Shown here: in pieces, positions 3,954 through 38,739 of the stretch
Position numbering within the stretch: position 1 is the stretch's first letter
How the letters are laid out: each line of letters opens with the position of its first letter
Virus genome (UHGV): UHGV-0179803
From: a virus
Length of the DNA: 64,000 nt
Strand: one strand, 5' to 3'
Program-made: the position numbers and the translations under genes
The notes under the pieces: model-generated
The model's input: the letters and a program-made list of their open reading frames with translations, nothing else
Database searches by the model: none
What the model was told of the DNA's origin: nothing

Positions 3954-5708
3954 GTGGCTCAAGATATGACAAACTTTGAGGAGGCCGTGGATCAGGTCAT
4001 AATTGATTCTGAGCGCCTCCATCTGGTTGTCAATGGTACTGCCGTGGATGAAGTTGTGGTAGAGGATGGGACAACCATCCCTACCGTCCGTAAGGCACTA
4101 CTTGATAACCTGTATTTTAAAACTCCACCAATCCCGTGGGTATATGGTTCTTCCACCACAGTATTTAACCAGATTTATGAATACAAAGCGGATGGAAAAA
4201 TCACATGGTGGTATGCTCCTGGAGCATCTAAATCCACACCAGTGCGCTTGCCAGCAGACCCTTTCACCTCTACCGCGTGGAGGTTGTATACTGATGCCAA
4301 CGTGCTTGCTGAATTCTATGCTAAACTGAGTAGCCCACTCTTCCAGGGGGATCCGCGTGTTCCGACACCGCCGATGGATGATAAATCTCTGTCCATTGCC
4401 AACACCACATTCGTTGTTGACTATGTAGACAGCATTTTTGAAGCTATGGCTGGTATGCAGGTCACAGTTGGTTCCCTAGTTGTTCGTGGCTTATCAGAAT
4501 TAGCTAACACTATTATTGACGGTACTTTAACTGTACGTGGTCCTTTAAATGCTTCCGACTTTGCTGGGCGTTTCAAAGAGTTGACTTTAACAGGTAAAGA
4601 TTCCGCTATCAATTTTAACTGGACAGACAGGAACCATCCTAACTGGACCTCCACAGCGCTGGATCCTTACAACATCGAGACTCACCTGTTGACCTCTGAT
4701 GTGATCCACAATGGTGCTCCGGTAAGTGATAACACCACTGTTCACTTCGATGGTCGCGGTAACAACTTCTTTGACTACGTTTATATTCGGGGGAATTCTC
4801 AGAAAGATGTTCAGGAACCCACCCTGACGGTTGACGGTGTAACTCAAGTCAAAGATCTGAAAGTAACAGGTAAAGTTGAAGGTATTGTTCACTCTGTAGA
4901 TGGTCTGGATATTTACCCGAACTATCTGGAAACAACTAACGATGCCCGTGTCAACGGTGACTTGCAGGTTGGTGGATCAGTGGTTATTCAGGGTAATGCA
5001 ATGGTTCAGGATTTGTCTACCAACACATTCAGATCTAACCAGCAGGCTACTTTTGAGGGTAACGGTATTGTTGCCAATAAAGCTGCGATTACGACTTTAA
5101 CTGGTACAACTGCCACCATTGATACTGGTAACTTCACTAATTGTAATGTGAATCACAACTTGCAGGTAAATGGGGATGTAAGCCTGAACGCAGAGGGTAA
5201 TGGTACGACTTATGTTCATAACATCCAGGTCTCTGGCACACTGACAGGTTGGATGCCGGATTACACAGGTAAAACTCTCAACTGTGGCGGTGTGAACGCA
5301 TCAGGTAACATCAGCATCAATGGCGACCTCAGCGTTGGTGGTAGCACTACAATTGGGAAGATCCGTACAACCAAACTGGAATTCGAATCTGAGGATATCG
5401 CTGGCGCTACGGGGACATGGACCCCATCAGGAAATGCTAACATGTACGTTGTTGAAGTTACTGGCGACCTGAACGTAGCAACATGGCCTGGCGTTACAGC
5501 AGCTTCAGAAGAGGATAAACCTTATCCGTTCTCAGTGGTGATTTATTTCCGTCAGGATGCTACAGGGCATCAGGTCACATTCAGTGATAAGTATGCAATC
5601 TTGTCTGCAACTCCTGTAGTTAACAACAAAGCCAATAGCGTGACCCTTTGTCAACTAACCTACCCTGGCTTCGGCGACATTGTGGACGTTATTATTGCAC
5701 AACGTTAA
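3954..5708 (+). CDS. tail fiber protein with conserved collar motif
   Basis: In-frame GTG 5 nt after AAGGAG (alternative ATG at 3828 would overlap upstream ORF); motif PTPPMDDKSLSIANTTFVVDYV typical of phage fiber N-terminal domains. Confidence 0.65.
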   Translation: MAQDMTNFEEAVDQVIIDSERLHLVVNGTAVDEVVVEDGTTIPTVRKALLDNLYFKTPPIPWVYGSSTTVFNQIYEYKADGKITWWYAPGASKSTPVRLPADPFTSTAWRLYTDANVLAEFYAKLSSPLFQGDPRVPTPPMDDKSLSIANTTFVVDYVDSIFEAMAGMQVTVGSLVVRGLSELANTIIDGTLTVRGPLNASDFAGRFKELTLTGKDSAINFNWTDRNHPNWTSTALDPYNIETHLLTSDVIHNGAPVSDNTTVHFDGRGNNFFDYVYIRGNSQKDVQEPTLTVDGVTQVKDLKVTGKVEGIVHSVDGLDIYPNYLETTNDARVNGDLQVGGSVVIQGNAMVQDLSTNTFRSNQQATFEGNGIVANKAAITTLTGTTATIDTGNFTNCNVNHNLQVNGDVSLNAEGNGTTYVHNIQVSGTLTGWMPDYTGKTLNCGGVNASGNISINGDLSVGGSTTIGKIRTTKLEFESEDIAGATGTWTPSGNANMYVVEVTGDLNVATWPGVTAASEEDKPYPFSVVIYFRQDATGHQVTFSDKYAILSATPVVNNKANSVTLCQLTYPGFGDIVDVIIAQR

Positions 5709-5715
5709 TTAATTA

Positions 5716-5745
5716 GCCTCTCCTGCGGGAGAGGCTTTACTGTTT
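5716..5745 (+). terminator. intrinsic terminator
   Basis: Hairpin GCCTCTCC-TGCG-GGAGAGGC followed by T-rich run, immediately after fiber gene stop. Confidence 0.7.
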
Positions 5746-5755
5746 GGAGAACACA

Positions 5756-8700
5756 ATGCTTCCAATTCCTCTGTTAAAACTTGCTAATTTCCATCTGGAC
5801 TCGAAGGATGGGATCAAGGAACTTGCTGTTCTGTCCTACCCAATAGATAAAAGTGATGGTACTAGCAGCACAGTATCTTATGTAAACAGTCTTGCAATTC
5901 TTTATGCAGATGGTTTGCTCGTTCTGACAGGCGCTAACAAGTATGGCGAATGTGGAACAGGTAATCGCAACGAATGCATTTACCCGAACGAGTCGATCCG
6001 CAACATCGATCATGTCTGGAGAGCAGATCGTTCTTTCGTGGTTGAAACTTTTGATCATGAATTCTTTTACATCGGCTGCACAGCGGGTCTTATTGGCTCC
6101 ACAGCGGCTGGTGGTAACGATGTTTGTGTAACCCAGTGGACTGCACTACCTTCACAAATTACGACCACTCTGGGGCTTGATAAGCACCCAGAACGCTTGC
6201 TTGAAGTTTGCGGTGGGATGAACAACACTTGCTGGGTAATTGGTGCACCTGAAGGTGAAGGTATCTGGGATATCTACGGTTCAGGCAACAACACCTACGG
6301 TTCTTTGCATGTGGATAAAAACCAACATGCCAACCCTGTTAAAATTGCTGAAACTTCTCAGGATCCTGTAACAGGGCAGTGGAAAAACCCAGCACTAAAT
6401 CTGGAGGTCCACGATAACTCTGTGATCTATGGTGGCCCAGATGGCTACTGGATTGCTGGTTACGATTTCCTGCGCAATAATAGTGAGCTTAATCTGGTTT
6501 ATCCACCAGAACACGGGACATGGGCAGCTTTGACAGGCAGCAGTGAAACCTACAAATGGTTCATGTGTGGTCCGAATGGGGCTGTAGTTGCTACAGAGCG
6601 TAATCACACAGATGGTATACCTGTGTATGTATTCCGTGGACAGAATTCCTGGGGTGATAAAACCTGGCGCCCATTGAACCTCACCTATACCCATGAAGTG
6701 ATTATTGCACAAGGTCATGCTACTAACGGCATCTTCTTTAATAACGGTACAAAACAGTACAGAGGTTTCTCTCGTAACCTGTGTAACGATATTGGCTGGT
6801 CGTCTGCTGAAGCCAACCCTCGTGCACAGTTCCAGCACAAGCAGGCAATTGCTACAGCTGCATACGTCGAACAACGTACACCTGTTAGTTGGGCTGAGAA
6901 CGTATACTTCCAGGGCATCAACCGGGAAGGTTACTTGGGCACACTAACTGTGGTAAACGGTAAACTTTGGTGGTCCGGTATTCCTCGTGGCAGCTTCCCA
7001 GGAAGCAACAACCTGTTTGGAGGCCAACTCAATTCTCAAGGTTTTACACAGGTAGACCCGAACTGGATTAAGAACGTTCCAGTATCCAGTTTTGAGGTTG
7101 AAGAAGTTATTAGAGTCAACGGTTGGGGGACTGAGCGCCCTGTCAGTAACATTTATATTGGGGATACTGTTCAGCTCAGAATTAAAGCTCTACCAAGAGG
7201 TGCTACATGGTTTGTAGACAAAGTTGAGATCACAAATGCAGCACAAACTGTTGTAAGCGATCCTCTGTATACTGCAACCATTAACCACAACGTGTTTGGT
7301 GTATGGGATAGTATTGTTACCCAACAGAATAAAAACGTTGATCGTCGTGGACTGTACCATGTTAAAATCACCTACCATGATAAAAATGGTACTCACACAC
7401 ATCTAACCAGAAACATCAACTGGAACACGATTGTACCTGTGATCCCTTCGGATAGTACATGGTACACTCAAGGTCTGAGCCGCTCTTTGTCTTTGGGCAG
7501 CACAACCTATTTGGGTCTGGATACTGCACAACCTGCAACTGAAAATGCTGACGCTTTTAAAATCAGATTACACAGGAAAGATGCAGGCTCTGTGACCTAT
7601 GATGTGACACAAGAACTTTACAACCAACGCCGTGAAATGTATAACTTCCTGGTCACTCATCAGGCACTGTGGGAATACAACCCGAACGGTGCTGGTGGTA
7701 AAATGTATCAGGCCAACGAACAGAACGGGACTTCTCTGAACATCCACTCAGATAAAAACCCGTGGGCTACGCCTGAAAGACCTCCTAGCTGGGCACGTAC
7801 TCTGAAAGTTGTCAGCTACGACGCAGGTTTCTTTGGTTTGCGTTGGGAATCAACAATTGAATACTATGATGGTACTCACCAGAACATCGGGTTAACCCTT
7901 GGTGGGGATTCTGCCAGCACTTCACGTAAGATTGTCCGTACGCCACGCGGTGTGGATATCTCTGTTGATCTTGTTAAGAACAGTTATGGGGATATTCAGG
8001 CGCATGTAACACCTGCTGAGGCTGCGAATAATATATCTTATAATATTGCGGCATTCAAAGAGGATCCTCGCGTTGTTGGTGCGCACGATGCCGACTGGTA
8101 TTACACCATTACACCCACTGCTGATACTACCAACTTCATGTTAGGTATGAAACGTGACATGCAGAAAAAACTAGGTGTTACTGACCTGTGCTACGTTTGC
8201 ATTAAAGATACCCGTGTTAAAGATACGGATCCTGAAGCAAAATGGTTTACCGTTGACCCGAATACCATACGTAGTGATAAGTTTGTTAACGAATATATCC
8301 TGTGCGCTGGCGGTACTAACCTGAACTTGTTCTGGAGTGAAAACGCTGATAAATATTGTAGTTATGATTACTTACGTGATTATTGCTGTAACCAGTGGTT
8401 TACCAACGGCAACGGCTATGTGCCTCGCCAATGCCAGACACTGCCAGCCATCTTCACAGATAACCAGACATTTTTGCTGAAACAGGCTAATGAAGTTCAG
8501 GTTGATAAAAACGGGTATGATGGAACCAAATGGTTCTTTAACTGCTATGCTCAGTATTATTGGGGTCCTGGGGAGCTTCTCAGTGATGCAGGTTGCAATC
8601 TGATGGATAAAGAAATAGGCTCATGGACTCATATGAACCAAACCTGCAACTTTATTCCACAGAACGCAACATCTGAGGGGTCTTCAGTTCTGGATGCTTA

Positions 8701-32193: not shown

Positions 32194-32857
32194 CTGGAGC
32201 AAATATTTCACCTACAGTGACGGTAAACTGTTCTGGGCGTATACCGCAAAAGCCGGAAGAGGCAGGGTTATACATCACGCAGGCGAGGAGGCCACAGGTA
32301 CAGACACAGATGGCTATAGGGTGATAAGTGTGTCAGGTGTTGGACGTGTTAGTAGGCATAGAATAATTTGGGAGATGCATTACGGGGAGATACCTGAAGG
32401 CCTTGTTGTGCGGCACAAGAACGACATAGCAGGCGATGATAGGATAGAGAACTTAGTCCTAGGAACACAGGGAGATAATGTACGAGACATGATCTACAGT
32501 GACAAATTGAACATTAACAATACCTCAGGGTGTCGAGGTGTATGCTACCATAGGGGTGTAAAAAGATGGATTGCATCTGCTGGAGACATATATTTAGGAT
32601 GTTTTAAGACAAAAGAGGATGCAATTACATGCAGAAAGTTATGGGAGGAGGGAAAATTCGTCCCGCAAGAATTAGATGTTAGAAATACCAGCGGTGTAAC
32701 AGGGGTGTTCTATGTGCCAAGCTCTGGAAGGTGGAGAGTTAGAGTACAAAGTGGCAAAAAGAGAAAGAGCTATGGTAGTTACAACACTTTAGAAGAAGCA
32801 AGAGCTGTAAGGGACAGAGTGATGAAAGAGATTGAGGAGTCTAAAGATGGGGAATAA
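32186..32857 (+). CDS. HNH homing endonuclease with AP2-type DNA-binding repeats
   Basis: 223 aa; HNH_3-like GYRVISVSG...RVSRHRIIWEMHYG...VVRHKNDIAGDDRIENL; two AP2-like repeats (TSGCRGVCYHRGVKRWIA, TSGVTGVFYVPSSGRWRV). Confidence 0.75.
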   Translation: MVDWSKYFTYSDGKLFWAYTAKAGRGRVIHHAGEEATGTDTDGYRVISVSGVGRVSRHRIIWEMHYGEIPEGLVVRHKNDIAGDDRIENLVLGTQGDNVRDMIYSDKLNINNTSGCRGVCYHRGVKRWIASAGDIYLGCFKTKEDAITCRKLWEEGKFVPQELDVRNTSGVTGVFYVPSSGRWRVRVQSGKKRKSYGSYNTLEEARAVRDRVMKEIEESKDGE

Positions 32858-35800
32858 GTTTATACCCTCTGCGTATAGTCGTTATGGGGAACCGAACCCA
32901 GTTGCAACAAGATACAAAAGCGGAGGCAGTATGGCACGAGACTATCGTGATGAAAAAGAGGTTGAAACTGTAGAGACTGTTTTAGAAAATACTAAAATTG
33001 TCCCTGTTCCACAACAAAATATCGGACTGACGGCTGCACAATATTTCGGTGTGCGATCAGCATTGTCCCAAGAAGATGGTGTGACAGTCGTTGCAACATA
33101 TTTCCCATATTACAACCGCTACGGCAATCTATCTGGCTTTAAAAAGCGTGATTGGTCTAAGCCAAAAGAGCAGAAAGGGCACTGGTCTGTAGTAGGCATT
33201 GTTAAGGCCAACAGCCAGTTCTTCGGTCAGAAAATGGTTGGTGAAGGCTCAGACCATCGTAAAATCATTGTCTGCGAAGGTGAAGGCGATGTTATTGCTG
33301 CGTGGCAGACTGAATGGATGATGGTCAGGAAAATAGCTACAGACCCGTCATCAAATAAGAAAGCTAAAGCGTGGGCACAAAGCGTTCTTGACGGTATTAA
33401 AGCCGTGCAGGATGGTGGTTCTGCTAAAGGTTTTCCCACAATTAACGTGGTAGGGCTTAATTGTGGTTGTGCGAATGCCGTAGACGCTTTTGCCAACAAC
33501 GAGAAGTTTATTCGTGGCTTTGATGAGATTGTCCTGGCCTTCGATAATGACGCTGCAAATGATGTTGAGAAGCTAAAACATGTCACCAAAGGTGTTGAAG
33601 CCACTCACAATGTTGCAGCTTTCCTGATGGCTGACAACGTTTTCCATGTGCAGTATCCGAGCGAGGTAAATGATCCAGAGGGTTACAAAGATATCCGTGA
33701 TTTGTTCCAGGCTAAAAAGTATGATCAAATTCACGATATGTTCAAAAACCCGATCAAATACGTGCCAGACGCTGTAGCAGGCCTGAATGATTTCTCAATT
33801 GAAGATTTACGTAAAAAATCCACCAATGGTGTTGACATTGGGGCAGAGTTCCCTAAACTCCAGAAAATGTTGAAAGGTTTGCATAAAGGCACACTGGTCA
33901 TGTTGACTGGCCCTTCCGGCGGTGGTAAGACTACGGTAGCTAAGAAGATTGAGCACCAGATAGCTAAATACCTGATGGATCCTACGGTGGCTAAAGCTGA
34001 TGACTACGACCCCGAAGACAGGTTGTGTATGATTCACCTGGAAGAGGACCCAGAAGAAGCCATCAACTCGCTGTATGCTAACCAGCTGGGGTATGATATC
34101 AAGAATTTCATGGAGGACCCAAGCAAGTATCTGACCGAGCAGGAACACTTTGAAATCCACAAAGCCTGGGTTGATGCTGATAAAATCAGAGTATTCCGGC
34201 ACTTCGGTTCAATACCTGTAAACGACCTGATCACCAAGCTGAAACAGATGGTGTGCTTGTATCATTGTCGTTACATCGTACTGGATCATCTGTCAATGGT
34301 TATTTCTGGTTTGAATGTAAAAGATGAGCGTAAAGAGCTGGACCTTGCAATGACGCAGCTTGCAGCATTCTGTAAGCAATTCAATGTGTTCATTTTGGTG
34401 ATTGCACACTTACGTCGTACAGAGATTATCCCACCGAAGGATAAAGAAGGTAGGGCTTTACCGTTCTGGTATCCTGTCCGTAAAGAAAACCTTCGTGGTT
34501 GTGTTTCTGCGGACACAGAGTTTTTAACCCCGCAGGGGTGGAAACGCATAGATAACTATGCAGAAGGGGATTTGGTTGCGCAGCACGATGAAAATGGCGT
34601 AATGACTTTCGTAACCCCGAAAGCCTACATCAATCTTCCTTGCGAAGAAATGTGGCATGTTTCCAACACTCACGTTGTAGACATGTTGTTGAGCGATGAA
34701 CATCGTGTTGTATATGTGAATGACAGAACGCCAGATGTTTTCCGTACGAAAACCATGTTGGAAGTTGTCTATGACCACAACAACAAGCCTTCAGGTATGC
34801 GTGGGAAAATACCTGCTACGTTCCTCACAGGGTGCAATGGGACGCTGGGGTTGACTGATGACCAATTACGCCTACAGGTTGCTGTAAATGCTGATGGGAC
34901 AGTTCTTACTGAGTCAACAGGAAGAGTGGCTGTGAGAATCAAAAAAGATCGGAAAAAACAACGTCTCGAGATGCTGCTGGAGAAAACAAACACCACTTAT
35001 AGGCGTCTTGATTTGCACGGGGTGCACGAAGGACGCACAGAGTACCAATTTAAAGCACCGTGTGGGTATAAAGGTGTGACTGGGGAATGGTTTAATCTCA
35101 AACAACACGAGTTGGAGATTATCTGTGATGAGGTTATGTATTGGGACGGAGATTCTGTGAACAAAAACAGGGTGTCCACCATTAACAAACTTGAAGCGGA
35201 CTTCTTACAGTTTGCCTACAGCGCCTGTGGACATAGAACATCTTTATCCATGAAGGAGAACAACAGTGGCTTTGGCGGTAGTTACAACTGTAAACCTTTG
35301 TACGAGGTAAATGTTTGCAATACTAAGTACATGCATATACGCAAAGGTAGTAATAACAAACCCTCTATTGAACGTGTACCTTCCCCAGATGGACGTAAGT
35401 ATTGCTTTACGTTACCGTCGGGTATGTGGGTGGCGCGCCGCAATGGGCATATTTTTATCACAGGAAATTCGGGGAGTATGGAACAACTCAGTTGGGTTGT
35501 CATAGGGGTAGAAGCAGAAGAGATGCCTGACAGGTCCCGTGGGCGTGTCCGTTTAGTTAGCCTAAAAAACAGGCCAGCTAAAACCTTGGGTATCGCTGAT
35601 GTGCTGATTATGAACCCTGAGACTGGTAAATTCTCCGATGCCAGTGACTGGGTGTGGGATAAAGAGACAGGTTTCTTCCTGAACAAAGATGGGGATATTG
35701 TCTGGAGGCCACAAGATATGTTCGACAATGAAGAACATGTTGTTGTGGAAACTCCTGAAGGTAAGGTTACCGCCGATGTGAAACCTCAACCAAAATCTGT

Positions 35801-35888
35801 TGACGCAGAAGGGGAAGAAGATGATGGAGTGGATGATCAGAGTGTAATCCAACAGGAGTTCCCTGAGGATGAAGATTGTCCGTTCTGA
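32847..35888 (+). CDS. primase-helicase (TOPRIM primase plus DnaB-like helicase), interrupted by an intein
   Basis: TOPRIM IIVCEGEGDVIAAW and LAFDNDAAND; Walker A LTGPSGGGKTTV; helicase motif split as ENLRG / SGSMEQLSWVVIG around a 323-aa insert. Confidence 0.8.
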   Translation: MGNKFIPSAYSRYGEPNPVATRYKSGGSMARDYRDEKEVETVETVLENTKIVPVPQQNIGLTAAQYFGVRSALSQEDGVTVVATYFPYYNRYGNLSGFKKRDWSKPKEQKGHWSVVGIVKANSQFFGQKMVGEGSDHRKIIVCEGEGDVIAAWQTEWMMVRKIATDPSSNKKAKAWAQSVLDGIKAVQDGGSAKGFPTINVVGLNCGCANAVDAFANNEKFIRGFDEIVLAFDNDAANDVEKLKHVTKGVEATHNVAAFLMADNVFHVQYPSEVNDPEGYKDIRDLFQAKKYDQIHDMFKNPIKYVPDAVAGLNDFSIEDLRKKSTNGVDIGAEFPKLQKMLKGLHKGTLVMLTGPSGGGKTTVAKKIEHQIAKYLMDPTVAKADDYDPEDRLCMIHLEEDPEEAINSLYANQLGYDIKNFMEDPSKYLTEQEHFEIHKAWVDADKIRVFRHFGSIPVNDLITKLKQMVCLYHCRYIVLDHLSMVISGLNVKDERKELDLAMTQLAAFCKQFNVFILVIAHLRRTEIIPPKDKEGRALPFWYPVRKENLRGCVSADTEFLTPQGWKRIDNYAEGDLVAQHDENGVMTFVTPKAYINLPCEEMWHVSNTHVVDMLLSDEHRVVYVNDRTPDVFRTKTMLEVVYDHNNKPSGMRGKIPATFLTGCNGTLGLTDDQLRLQVAVNADGTVLTESTGRVAVRIKKDRKKQRLEMLLEKTNTTYRRLDLHGVHEGRTEYQFKAPCGYKGVTGEWFNLKQHELEIICDEVMYWDGDSVNKNRVSTINKLEADFLQFAYSACGHRTSLSMKENNSGFGGSYNCKPLYEVNVCNTKYMHIRKGSNNKPSIERVPSPDGRKYCFTLPSGMWVARRNGHIFITGNSGSMEQLSWVVIGVEAEEMPDRSRGRVRLVSLKNRPAKTLGIADVLIMNPETGKFSDASDWVWDKETGFFLNKDGDIVWRPQDMFDNEEHVVVETPEGKVTADVKPQPKSVDAEGEEDDGVDDQSVIQQEFPEDEDCPF
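34500..35468 (+). mobile_element. intein (323 aa) within the helicase domain
   Basis: Starts CVSADTEFL (block A-like Cys1); ends NGHIFITGN followed by Ser +1; flanking extein residues reconstitute a DnaB-type RG-SG motif; size allows an endonuclease domain. Confidence 0.65.
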
Positions 35889-35952: not shown

Positions 35953-38739
35953 ATGGCGCTTTTTTGTTATGACTTTGAGGCCTCAGGCTTGCTCGATGAG
36001 CCTGAACTGTACTACCATTGTGGACTGTTTAAACAGCACCACAAAAACAATTTCATGCTATTCCTGCCGCTAAACGACAGGACCCATTACACAGAGGAAG
36101 ATGTAGAAACAGCAAAACAATTTGCTCTCAATAAGCAGACAATTTACAAAAACTGTCAGGTGCGGGTTGCCGACTTCGGGTATCTGGAAGAGTGGTTGAC
36201 AGGACATTCTGATTGGTCACCAACAGCTCTTGCCTGCCACAACTGCTTTGATTATGACCAGATTTTGATGGAAAAACTGTCAGGCATTCATTTCGACCTG
36301 TTCGAAGATAAAGATTGCATGGGAACCATCAACGGTCACAGGGTTAACCTGTTCGATACTCTGCCGATGAGTCGTATACTGTGGCCTGATCGCCCGTTAC
36401 CGAAGGGTTGCCCAGAATCAGTATTCAACCCGGTAACGAAGAAAAGTCAAGCTGTAGGTCCACACGGGTTGATGGCCTGGGGCTATGCACTTGGCAACCA
36501 GAAAGTTAAGATTGATGACTGGCGCAATCTTCCACTCTGGAAATACGTAGACCGTGTGTGGGAAGACGTTATCATCCAGGAATTGCTCTGGGACGAACTG
36601 ATCGCCGAGTCCAAAGGGACATTCTACGGTAAATCTGACATGCAAAACTTTATGTATGATCCAGACAAAGAGAAACCTGGTGGATTCAAACAGATCACTT
36701 GGAAGTATGCTCTGCGTCGTGGGATGCTTCAGCACTTCCTGATGGGCTTACAGGCAAGACAAGGTGTTTATTTTGATATTGATGGGGCGATAGCTTTACG
36801 TCAGAAGTGTGACGACATGATGAAAGAGATCGCTGATCGTGTGGAACCGCAGCTGCCACTGAAAGAAATTTCAGAGGCCCAGAAGCCTAAGTTCCCACAG
36901 AAACCGTTTAATACGGATGGTAGTATCTCTTCTCACGGCTACAGCTGGTTGAAGAACAAACTGGGGTATCCAGTTAATGAAGCAGCTTTCGACTTCAAAC
37001 CTGCACCTAAACGGGCTTTCAACAAAGATGGTAGTGTTAGTGCCACAGGTGCTAAATGGTGTGTAGAAAGAGGTTGCACCGATCCTGAAAAACAGGCAGA
37101 CTTCCTGAGGGCAGCACGGTCAGAGGAAGCACCTAAACCTCTGCCGGATGACCTGATGCAACAGGCAATTAAGGATTTGCAGGATAAGAAAATGCCTGAT
37201 TGCATGGTGCCTATGAGAATGAATAACCAGATGGATATCAAGCGTTATCTAATCTCTGTAGGCTGGCAACCAACAATGTGGAGAACGAAAGATTTAACCC
37301 GTGATTACCACAAAAAACAGTTGCCGGATGCTGAAGTTGATGCTAAAGTAAGGGAGTATATGGATGAACTGGAAACATCTGAGTATCGTGCCCTGATCAT
37401 CCGTGAACTGAACAAGGATGCACGATTCAAAATTTCAGAAGCGAAGTTTCTGAGTCGTAAGAACTCCCCGAGGGTTGAGCAGGAGGTGTTCGCTAAGTTC
37501 CGGCGTAAAGCCAGAGGACTACCAACATCCCCGCAGCTGAAAGATAGCTTCGGGCATTTGTGTCCTAACCTGGCAAGACTGCAAGGAGAGATGGCAAAAG
37601 ATATTGTGTTCTGGCTGTCATTGCGTAACCGTAGGTCAGTACTTGACCCAATCAAGGAAGATAAAGTTGATACCGGATTGTTGAATCATCCGAGATTGCA
37701 GATCGATCACCGCTTACCCGCAGAAAGCTCTGGTTTGACTGCTACCGGACGACAGAAGCATAAAATATGTGCCAACCAGCCTAAACCTTCACCAAAAGTT
37801 GTATTGGGTAAGGAGATGCGTAGCCTCTGGAAACCTGCTCCTGGTAAGTATCAGTTGGGGGTGGATGGTTCCAACCTTGAACAGCTGATAGGTGCATGGG
37901 GTGCTTACGATTTCGACAACGGGGCGTATTACAGGATTATAAGCGAAGGGGACGCACATGCTTTGAACGCCAAAGCCTACTCTAAAGTTGTGGGCAGGGA
38001 AGTTTCCCGTGGTGATGGTAAACCAATCACCTATGGTGTGATGTATGGCGCTCAAAAGGATAAAGTAGCGGATATGCTCGACGTTGTGCCGGAGGTTGGT
38101 CAGCAGGTAATTGATGCATTCTGGGATACCAACTTCGGCCTGAAAGGTCGTAAAGAGGCACTTGAGAAATTCTGGGAGGCAACAGGTAAGAAATTTATCT
38201 ATGCTTTCGATGGTCATGCCATCTGGACACGCTCTAAACACTCCTTGCTGAATGCATATCAGCAGAATGGTGGCGCTTCATTGTGTGACTTGGTAGGCTT
38301 ACTGGTTCATCGCAACCTAGTGACCTTGAAAATAGATAATAAAACTTGGTATGACCTAGGTGTCAGAAGAATAATTTATTACCATGACGAATTTCAGTAT
38401 GAAATTCCAGATAATGGCTTATTTAAAACAGTTTATGAGTTTGATACTCTGGAAGAACTGGAAAAATTCAAAGCAGAGGAGGAAGCAAAAGGTCGTATCT
38501 TTACTGGCAACAAATACAAAAAAGCCCGTAAAGATGAAAATGGTGAAGAAGTAGTTGACAGCAACGGTAAAACCGTGTATGATCCAATCATAAACGAAAA
38601 CGGCAAATGCCAGTTGATTCATTGCAAGGTTGGTGAAATGGTTGTTAAATGCTTCCACCAGGCATCTCGCATCATGAAAGTACCTTTCCAGATCACAGGT
38701 GAAGGTCTTGTGGGATACTCGTGGGGCGAATGCCACTGA
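35953..38739 (+). CDS. DNA polymerase, family A, with N-terminal 3'-5' exonuclease
   Basis: 928 aa; Exo I-like FCYDFEASGL; motif B REVSRGDGKPITYGVMYGAQ; motif C IIYYHDEFQYE. Confidence 0.85.
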   Translation: MALFCYDFEASGLLDEPELYYHCGLFKQHHKNNFMLFLPLNDRTHYTEEDVETAKQFALNKQTIYKNCQVRVADFGYLEEWLTGHSDWSPTALACHNCFDYDQILMEKLSGIHFDLFEDKDCMGTINGHRVNLFDTLPMSRILWPDRPLPKGCPESVFNPVTKKSQAVGPHGLMAWGYALGNQKVKIDDWRNLPLWKYVDRVWEDVIIQELLWDELIAESKGTFYGKSDMQNFMYDPDKEKPGGFKQITWKYALRRGMLQHFLMGLQARQGVYFDIDGAIALRQKCDDMMKEIADRVEPQLPLKEISEAQKPKFPQKPFNTDGSISSHGYSWLKNKLGYPVNEAAFDFKPAPKRAFNKDGSVSATGAKWCVERGCTDPEKQADFLRAARSEEAPKPLPDDLMQQAIKDLQDKKMPDCMVPMRMNNQMDIKRYLISVGWQPTMWRTKDLTRDYHKKQLPDAEVDAKVREYMDELETSEYRALIIRELNKDARFKISEAKFLSRKNSPRVEQEVFAKFRRKARGLPTSPQLKDSFGHLCPNLARLQGEMAKDIVFWLSLRNRRSVLDPIKEDKVDTGLLNHPRLQIDHRLPAESSGLTATGRQKHKICANQPKPSPKVVLGKEMRSLWKPAPGKYQLGVDGSNLEQLIGAWGAYDFDNGAYYRIISEGDAHALNAKAYSKVVGREVSRGDGKPITYGVMYGAQKDKVADMLDVVPEVGQQVIDAFWDTNFGLKGRKEALEKFWEATGKKFIYAFDGHAIWTRSKHSLLNAYQQNGGASLCDLVGLLVHRNLVTLKIDNKTWYDLGVRRIIYYHDEFQYEIPDNGLFKTVYEFDTLEELEKFKAEEEAKGRIFTGNKYKKARKDENGEEVVDSNGKTVYDPIINENGKCQLIHCKVGEMVVKCFHQASRIMKVPFQITGEGLVGYSWGECH

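Follow-up and report, generated by a model that had tools for sequence, protein, structure and literature searches.

A probable bifunctional intein of a Cys1...Thr-Gly-Asn family in the DNA-binding motif H4 of a phage primase/helicase

The segment at positions 34500-35468 of the viral genome UHGV-0179803, whose 64,000 nucleotides are referred to here as the window, is very probably a bifunctional mobile intein, in which a LAGLIDADG homing endonuclease domain is inserted into a HINT splicing domain and the whole element lies in motif H4 of a T7 gp4-like primase/helicase. This reading draws on sequence comparison and on structure prediction. An earlier note had proposed an intein within a replicative helicase, an interpretation that the exact insertion, its absence from the phage EmilHeitz, the HINT blocks and the predicted HINT fold all uphold. 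The features of the gene and of the element are collected in Table 1; in the sequences given in the text, a slash marks an insertion point.

Table 1. Positions in the window of the primase/helicase gene and of the putative intein it contains
Feature	Position	Strand	Details
Primase/helicase precursor gene	32847..35888	+	1013-aa precursor, 690-aa predicted spliced product
N-extein coding region	32847..34499	+	end ...PVRKENLRG, equivalent to T7 gp4 ...R487-G488
Putative intein	34500..35468	+	323 aa, Cys1 ... Thr321-Gly322-Asn323
N-terminal lobe of predicted HINT splicing domain	34500..34814	+	~aa 1-105, boundary approximate; blocks A, B
Block A	within 34500..34814	+	C1-V-S-A-D-T6-E7-F-L...G13-W14
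Block B	34674-34715	+	aa 59-72: S65 = B:7, H68 = B:10, R69 = B:11, V70 = B:12
Predicted LAGLIDADG homing endonuclease domain	34815..35324	+	~aa 106-275, boundaries approximate
LAGLIDADG motif 1	34869-34898	+	RLQVAVNADG, aa 124-133, putative catalytic D132
LAGLIDADG motif 2	35118-35150	+	IICDEVMYWDG, aa 207-217, putative catalytic D216
C-terminal lobe of predicted HINT domain	35325..35468	+	~aa 276-323; blocks F, G
Block F	35394-35441	+	aa 299-314: Y301, C302 = F:4, P306, G308, R313
Block G	35448-35468	+	aa 317-323 HIFITGN: T321 = G:5, G322 = G:6, N323 = G:7
Putative +1 nucleophile Ser codon	35469-35471	+	first C-extein residue
C-extein coding region	35469..35888	+	begins SGSMEQLSWVVIG, rest of motif H4; stop codon 35886-35888

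The open reading frame that carries the insert in frame opens at a TTG at position 32832 and ends at 35888 on the plus strand, and its true start is likely the ATG at 32847, since a GAGGAG Shine-Dalgarno sequence lies 7 nt 5' of this ATG and the annotated start in the closest relative reads MGNKF.... The encoded protein contains a DnaB_C/AAA_25 helicase domain (Pfam DnaB_C, E 3e-11), gives weak Toprim signals with Pfam and is the sole primase/helicase found in the 64-kb window. By tblastn it groups with the primase/helicases of rV5-like Escherichia phages (Vequintavirus/Vequintavirinae), at ~72-78% amino acid identity. Because no phage record exceeds ~87% nucleotide identity, and ~87% itself is reached over the first ~480 nt only, the window derives from a relative of these phages that has not been deposited. 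An HNH endonuclease gene, free-standing, lies just upstream of the primase/helicase gene and a DNA polymerase gene just downstream; a DNA methyltransferase gene is also among the neighbours.

Translation of 34500-35468 (+) gives 323 amino acids, CVSADTEFL...NGHIFITGN, with ...PVRKENLRG before them and SGSMEQLSWVVIG after them, which is exactly the insert, Cys first and Asn last with Ser next to it, that had been claimed for this stretch. Of the intein-less relatives examined in detail, Escherichia phage EmilHeitz is the closest, and direct alignment with it (...PVRKENLRG/SAGLEQLSWVVI) leaves a gap of exactly 323 residues, across which the EmilHeitz junction reads ENLRG/SAGLEQ; such an alignment with intein-less homologs was a check that the earlier note had itself suggested. 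In its exteins EmilHeitz shares 79.5% (N) and 65.7% (C) identity with the window, and the DNA of its empty site matches the fused flanks of the window, TATCCTGTCCGTAAAGAAAACCTTCGTGGT/TCGGGGAGTATGGAACAACTCAGTTGGGTT, at 41/60 nt. The rV5-like primase/helicases among the matches listed align with the exteins only, in two pieces that cover ~65-69% of the query. Insertion within the helicase gene is confirmed, far beyond chance. The base composition of the insert carries no signal of recent acquisition, its GC content being 45.0% vs 44.5% in the N-extein.

By alignment, the insert splits motif H4 of the SF4 helicases, which is a DNA-binding loop. When the exteins are joined in silico, the helicase domain aligns with T7 gp4 (1E0J, 1CR0, 6N7I) at an E of about 1e-18 and motif H4, LRGSG..QLS, becomes contiguous, in agreement with the claim that removal of the insert restores a DnaB-family helicase motif. 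In the alignment with 6N7I, from which the T7 gp4 numbering is taken, I483-T-D-L-R487-G488-S489-G-A-L-R-Q-L-S496 of T7 pairs with R-K-E-N-L-R-G/S-G-S-M-E-Q-L-S of the window, and R487, G488 and S496 of T7 gp4 are classic motif-4 mutant positions. The junction of the Ssp and Mtu DnaB inteins, presumably RESG/SIEQ, lies two residues downstream of LRG/SGSMEQ in the window, and these two sites may match the pair of DnaB intein sites, a and c, that are two residues apart. Sites a and c are both in motif H4 and site b is in the P-loop (Novikova et al., PMC4760082), and the Msm DnaBi2 and Mtu DnaB inteins in H4 are of class 1 and carry endonucleases (Kelley et al. 2018, PMC6195587). The DnaB inteins at sites a and c (PMC4760082, PMC6195587) resemble the element of the window in splitting motif H4 of an SF4 replicative helicase and in having their +1 Ser within the motif, but they differ from it in their canonical His-Asn end, belong to other intein lineages and reside in cellular DnaB, whereas the host here is a gp4-like primase/helicase fusion.

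The insert alone has full-length homologs (1-323) with 30-40% identity in other primase/helicases and in proteins that carry the annotations PhoH-like, RtcB RNA ligase, RecD-like helicase or AAA ATPase, in phages of Pseudomonas, Acinetobacter, Bacillus, Enterocloster, Vibrio, Corynebacterium and others. A word-indexed homolog search returned only 2 proteins, and an exhaustive HMMER (phmmer) search of 1.84 billion cluster representatives was used instead; with a cutoff of E<=1e-3 it returned 3348 proteins, of which 563 passed E<=1e-30, and the alignments of the 150 matches listed of these 563 run from residue 1 to residue 323 (to 321 in one case), the element being embedded at differing places within larger proteins. 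For the counts of conservation given below, 154 embedded family copies were excised. Approximately 122 of them are in Walker-A P-loops (G/xGK[ST]) and 8 are at the same helicase site as the copy of the window (RG/S..(E)Q), while some proteins contain two copies, one within the Toprim EGE/xD motif; the +1 residue is Ser in 73 copies, Cys in 61 and Thr in 20. Within an annotated phage collection, the Escherichia phages TH18, 19-1-2, 18-1-2 and 24-2-1 have a divergent member, 34% identical, at the same site, in genes annotated merely as 'DNA primase/helicase'. A six-frame search of the 64-kb window detected no further family copies. The family HMM comprises 31 homologous embedded elements and the window's own copy, so its match to that copy (E 7e-121) is inflated. 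On these comparisons the element belongs to a very large, mostly phage-borne 'Cys1...Thr-Gly-Asn' intein family.

The splicing blocks were located through the family alignment, which placed blocks A, B, F and G on the window's copy, with the N-terminal nucleophile Cys1, the C-terminal Asn323 and Ser+1 all present. As mapped on this copy, block A is C1-V-x-x-D-T6-E7-F...G13-W14, block B L-S65-D-E-H68-R69-V70, block F Y301-C302-F-T-L-P306-S-G308...R313 and block G I-T321-G322-N323. Over the 154 copies, C1, H68 and N323 are each found in 154, R313 in 153, C302 in 152, G322 in 147 and T321 in 143. The T-x-x-H of block B is S65-D-E-H68 in the window; position B:7 is Ser in 119 copies, Cys in 18 and Thr in 17, and Ser is a conservative variant that is present in the AceL NrdHF intein too. 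The His at position 13 of block F is absent from the window's copy.

Because this single copy is below the thresholds of Pfam and NCBIfam, its identification rests on family profiles and on a predicted structure. With the intein, Hint and LAGLIDADG models of these two collections the insert alone scored under threshold (Hint_2 E 0.13; nothing with NCBIfam), and the sole match in a phmmer search of the insert against PDB sequences, ETR1, was dismissed as spurious. A profile of 32 diverse family members, however, matches the AceL NrdHF intein, whose structure is solved (6ZGQ), at E 8e-10, with weak matches to other inteins and to hedgehog Hog domains. AlphaFold2 run with the 32-sequence alignment gave a model with a pLDDT of 94.7 and a pTM of 0.92 (a run with a 3-sequence alignment, pLDDT 34, was discarded). 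The HINT fold is present in the predicted structure, which Foldseek matches to inteins bearing homing endonucleases at E values down to 8e-13. Bifunctional inteins of the PI-SceI, PI-PfuI and TliVMA type are larger than the element of the window, contain additional regions for DNA recognition, have the canonical His as their penultimate residue and share only ~11-13% sequence identity with it.

The same observations dispose of a reading in which the 323 residues are an integral, non-excised accessory domain of a helicase lineage. Such a domain could account for the insert at the same position in the TH18 group, P0003, P0005 and other related primase/helicases, but EmilHeitz is without exactly these residues, the other rV5-like phages among the matches listed align with the exteins only, and the module recurs in PhoH, RtcB, RecD-like and many unrelated proteins, always as Cys...Asn followed by Ser, Cys or Thr. 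The fold of the insert is furthermore that of a HINT domain, every splicing residue is in place, and a DNA-binding motif is split by it. The earlier note had named homologous helicases with the same 323 residues built in as what would overturn its proposal; the comparison with EmilHeitz points the other way, and the integral-domain reading is effectively refuted. A group I intron with an in-frame endonuclease ORF was also considered and rejected, the ORF being continuous, the HINT blocks lying at both ends and the boundaries being exact at the protein level.

The intein reading has to accommodate the penultimate residue, which is Gly322 in place of His, as the earlier note had pointed out; although unusual among inteins at large, this ending is normal for the family, in which Gly at G:6 is the consensus. 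Approximately 5% of functional inteins have no His at G:6 (PMC4031507). The AceL NrdHF intein, whose residues include S65, H68, R69, M70, C124 at F:4, a P128-G129 kink and T144-G145-N146, splices in minutes; its activity is abolished by G145H and slowed by R69A, and Arg at B:11 has been proposed to make up for the absent His (PMC7891396). S65, H68 and R69 occur at the same numbering in the copy of the window. Across the family, however, Arg at B:11 is only the plurality state (64/154), so that its compensating role is tentative, while R313 is nearly invariant. Among the class 1 inteins of mycobacteriophages the penultimate His is often replaced by Gly, Lys or Ser (Kelley et al. 2016, PMC5050341), and the Bethlehem RDF intein, with penultimate Gly316, splices completely, whereas its G316H mutant accumulates precursor (PMC5050341). 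We located this intein at residues 95-411 of a 572-aa phosphoesterase (C...WCLRVPNG...IHLTGN), where the family HMM matches it at E 5.8e-21, and its alignment with the copy of the window spans both over their full length. It is likewise from a phage, with 317 aa, Cys1, Cys at F:4, the ending ...LTGN and a LAGLIDADG-type endonuclease, but it is only ~20% identical, is inserted at another site in another host protein (a metallophosphoesterase) and has TxxH in block B against SxxH in the window. Because Gly at G:6 extends across the family and is functional in two tested relatives, the penultimate Gly is a lineage trait rather than evidence of decay.

It is hence hard to sustain, and in our judgment highly improbable, that the element is decayed, splicing-defective or conditionally splicing, with the penultimate Gly as the cause and much of the helicase left as inactive precursor. 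The missing canonical His at that position, the missing His of block F and a frameshift inside the element of the metagenomic relative L005 would fit such decay, but His is deleterious in the two tested relatives (PMC7891396, PMC5050341), functional inteins with another residue at G:6 are on record (PMC4031507), all other catalytic residues are intact, and, the helicase being presumably essential, an insert in its motif H4 that does not splice would be lethal.

We infer that the element splices, and in the proposed mechanism the gene would be expressed as a precursor of roughly 1013 aa from which the HINT domain would excise itself by class 1 chemistry. Cys1 would undergo an N-S acyl shift at Gly-1, Ser+1 would attack the thioester to give a branched intermediate, cyclisation of Asn323 would release the intein, and an O-N shift would remake the peptide bond in ...ENLRG-SGSMEQ..., yielding an active 690-aa helicase with the junction peptide GSGSMEQLSWVVIGVEAEEMPDR. 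Asn cyclisation would proceed with no penultimate His, assisted presumably by Arg69 (B:11, as shown for AceL NrdHF) and by the nearly invariant Arg313. Given splicing, class 1 chemistry is the probable route, since Cys1 is invariant, B:12 is never Trp, 61/154 copies have Cys+1, and Cys at F:4 and Thr at G:5 are known outside class 3; the class assignment carries some uncertainty because of these same F:4 and G:5 residues and because the closest solved relative is of class 3.

The same intein might instead splice by class-3-like or relay chemistry, which we consider rather improbable. The WCT triplet of class 3 (Trp B:12, Cys F:4, Thr G:5) is V70, C302 and T321 in the window, a match at two of three positions that is conserved in the family, and the Ser+1 of the window is typical of class 3. 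AceL NrdHF, the closest solved relative by sequence and structure, shares S65, H68, R69, the kinked P-x-G of block F and T-G-N, and its own triplet is MCT, Trp being dispensable (PMC7891396); moreover, class 3 is defined mechanistically, by an N-terminal nucleophile that is not required (PMC5222942). Against this, the invariance of Cys1 (154/154) implies a need for it, B:12 is V, I or M in the family, across inteins generally only one residue is commoner at F:4 than Cys (PMC4031507), Thr at G:5 occurs also in the class 1 gp41-1 intein (PMC7664689), the many Cys+1 copies are atypical for class 3, and the Bethlehem RDF relative has been treated as class 1 (PMC5050341). Membership in class 3 was not adopted, in view of the invariant Cys1 and of B:12 positions devoid of Trp. 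AceL NrdHF (PDB 6ZGQ; Hoffmann et al. 2020, PMC7891396) is a naturally split class 3 intein with Ala1 and no endonuclease domain, a free-standing GIY-YIG gene lying between its halves, in a ribonucleotide reductase subunit; the element of the window, in contrast, has the invariant Cys1, is contiguous, contains a LAGLIDADG domain and resides in a helicase. Its active site is the Cys1 counterpart of that unusual class 3 intein. A more speculative proposal, to which we give little credence, is that the 'Cys1 ... Cys(F:4) ... Thr-Gly-Asn' family is of class 1 and stands to the class 3 inteins of the AceL NrdHF type as a sister or ancestor-like lineage, and that the near-invariant Cys302, far from passively replacing Asp, relays the chain as a nucleophile (Cys1 to Cys302 to Ser+1) or works as a redox switch (a Cys1-Cys302 disulfide); if so, helicase maturation would be conditional on cell state.

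The insert had been judged large enough for a homing endonuclease domain, and a LAGLIDADG domain is indeed identified within it by its motifs and predicted fold. D132 is present in 152/154 copies and D216 in 153/154, and K149, R151 and K152 are invariant or nearly so. The predicted structure shows the duplicated alpha-beta-beta-alpha-beta-beta-alpha fold of LAGLIDADG endonucleases. Pfam LAGLIDADG_3 does not match the window's copy at E<=1, and it matches 11/32 family members (best E 8.4e-7). If the domain is active, the endonuclease of the free intein would cut intein-less helicase alleles at co-infection and the element would be copied in, and we propose such homing at the DNA level as the source of its patchy distribution. 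That distribution, with a relative, P0003, whose intein is 82% identical to the window's although its exteins are only 54% and 50% identical, with EmilHeitz, whose exteins are closer and which has no intein, and with the divergent member of TH18, fits what homing would predict. The gap between 82% and 50-54% was withdrawn as proof of recent transfer: synonymous sites are saturated, so lateral transfer is inseparable from stronger constraint on the intein. Selection was assessed against the metagenomic relative P0001 / L005, which has the same element at the same site; pN and pS are given, not dN/dS, because pS is saturated at 0.79. The pN is 0.136 for the HINT/endonuclease N-half, 0.150 for the endonuclease C-half with blocks F and G, and 0.37 for the C-extein, and, with pN low in both halves, the whole element is under purifying selection.

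Splicing could be active while the LAGLIDADG domain has lost its endonuclease activity, leaving the element immobile and vertically inherited, a situation that we hold to be unlikely. The failure of the window's copy alone to reach the LAGLIDADG_3 thresholds and the limited match of the EmilHeitz empty site to the window's flanks would be in keeping with it. On the other side, D132, D216 and the invariant K149/K152 are in place, purifying selection acts on the endonuclease half as it does on the HINT half, the endonuclease fold is predicted with high confidence, conservation between divergent hosts is far higher in the intein than in the exteins, and the endonuclease of the Bethlehem relative was toxic when cloned (PMC5050341).

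The gene should be annotated as a primase/helicase that contains an intein and whose mature product has 690 aa. The standard intein models of Pfam and NCBIfam miss the element, and PHROG profiles with internal inteins label it 'PhoH-like', as the insert alone scores, or 'ribonucleotide reductase'. Inteins in SF4 helicase motif H4, LAGLIDADG-bearing inteins and His-less Gly-Asn ends in phage inteins are already documented, and an intein specialist would expect nothing surprising here. For protein engineering, the family offers thousands of natural variants of a His-less T-G-N active site so far studied in two members only. For the phages themselves, the element would be one more mobile element in the DNA-binding loop of a presumably essential replication protein, beside a free-standing HNH gene, and the HNH neighbour and the intein together fit a view in which rV5-like phages serve as arenas for homing elements.

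The primase/helicase gene that hosts the intein is accompanied by a further homing element, a free-standing HNH endonuclease ORF that lies directly 5' of it and overlaps its start, so that the helicase gene has one homing element at its border and a second, the intein, within it. The same arrangement of HNH ORF and primase/helicase is found in the annotation of Escherichia phage EmilHeitz, the closest intein-less relative that we examined in detail. As for the 5' end of the helicase gene itself (32832-32850), translation likely begins at ATG 32847 because a Shine-Dalgarno sequence, GAGGAG, is located 7 nt upstream of this codon and because the start annotated in relatives (MGNKF) agrees with it. 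The downstream DNA polymerase gene is whole in the window; in EmilHeitz the annotation joins its CDS from two segments and places a putative homing-endonuclease gene within it. The mobile-element content of the locus therefore differs between close relatives.

Features of the window, with strand and supporting evidence
Feature	Position	Strand	Evidence or comparison
HNH homing-endonuclease ORF, free-standing, 223 aa	32186-32857	+	PHROG phrog_99, E 1e-51
Primase/helicase, mechanical ORF start	TTG 32832	+	ORF call
DNA polymerase gene, single uninterrupted 928-aa ORF	35953-38739	+	compared with EmilHeitz (L001) 5153-8010
Three clustered tRNA genes (Met-CAT, Thr-TGT, Arg-CCT)	14557-14800	-	

A metagenomic contig of 1512 nt from ENA (L005) carries the same intein at the same helicase site. 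Its stretch after APCGY (around nt 370-420) lacks 11 nt relative to the window, which shifts the frame within the endonuclease domain, and the gene is called as two ORFs; the cause is an error of sequencing or assembly, or else the copy is decaying. The database protein P0010 carries a mini-intein derivative from which the endonuclease has been deleted. P0002 (330 aa, Logan assembly) is homologous to the element over its entire length but stands free, with neither Cys1 (GFSGNTEFL...) nor the terminal Asn (...IFIAKGL). It may be a HINT and LAGLIDADG protein that no longer splices and has a gene of its own.

The family also occupies a second site, the EGE/xD motif of the Toprim domain: some other primase/helicases (P0004, P0006, P0017) carry two members, one in this motif and one in the helicase P-loop. 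The equivalent Toprim site in the window (codons for CEGE/GD, aa 148-153 of the 1018-aa ORF) is empty of any family member. The primase/helicase of Pseudomonas phage KIL1 (L002 1930-4731) contains a 40%-identical member in the P-loop, with the junctions ASG/C...FITGN/TGKST, and its CDS is annotated as a join of two pieces, which suggests that the annotators took part of the gene for an intervening sequence.

The insert alone (34500-35468) matches phrog_32482, labeled 'PhoH-like', with an E of 2.7e-58 over profile positions 76-405 of 589, and a 'ribonucleotide reductase' PHROG with an E of 1e-6. Both profiles contain inteins internally, and inteins inside PHROG profiles are a source of annotation error for phage genes that contain inteins.
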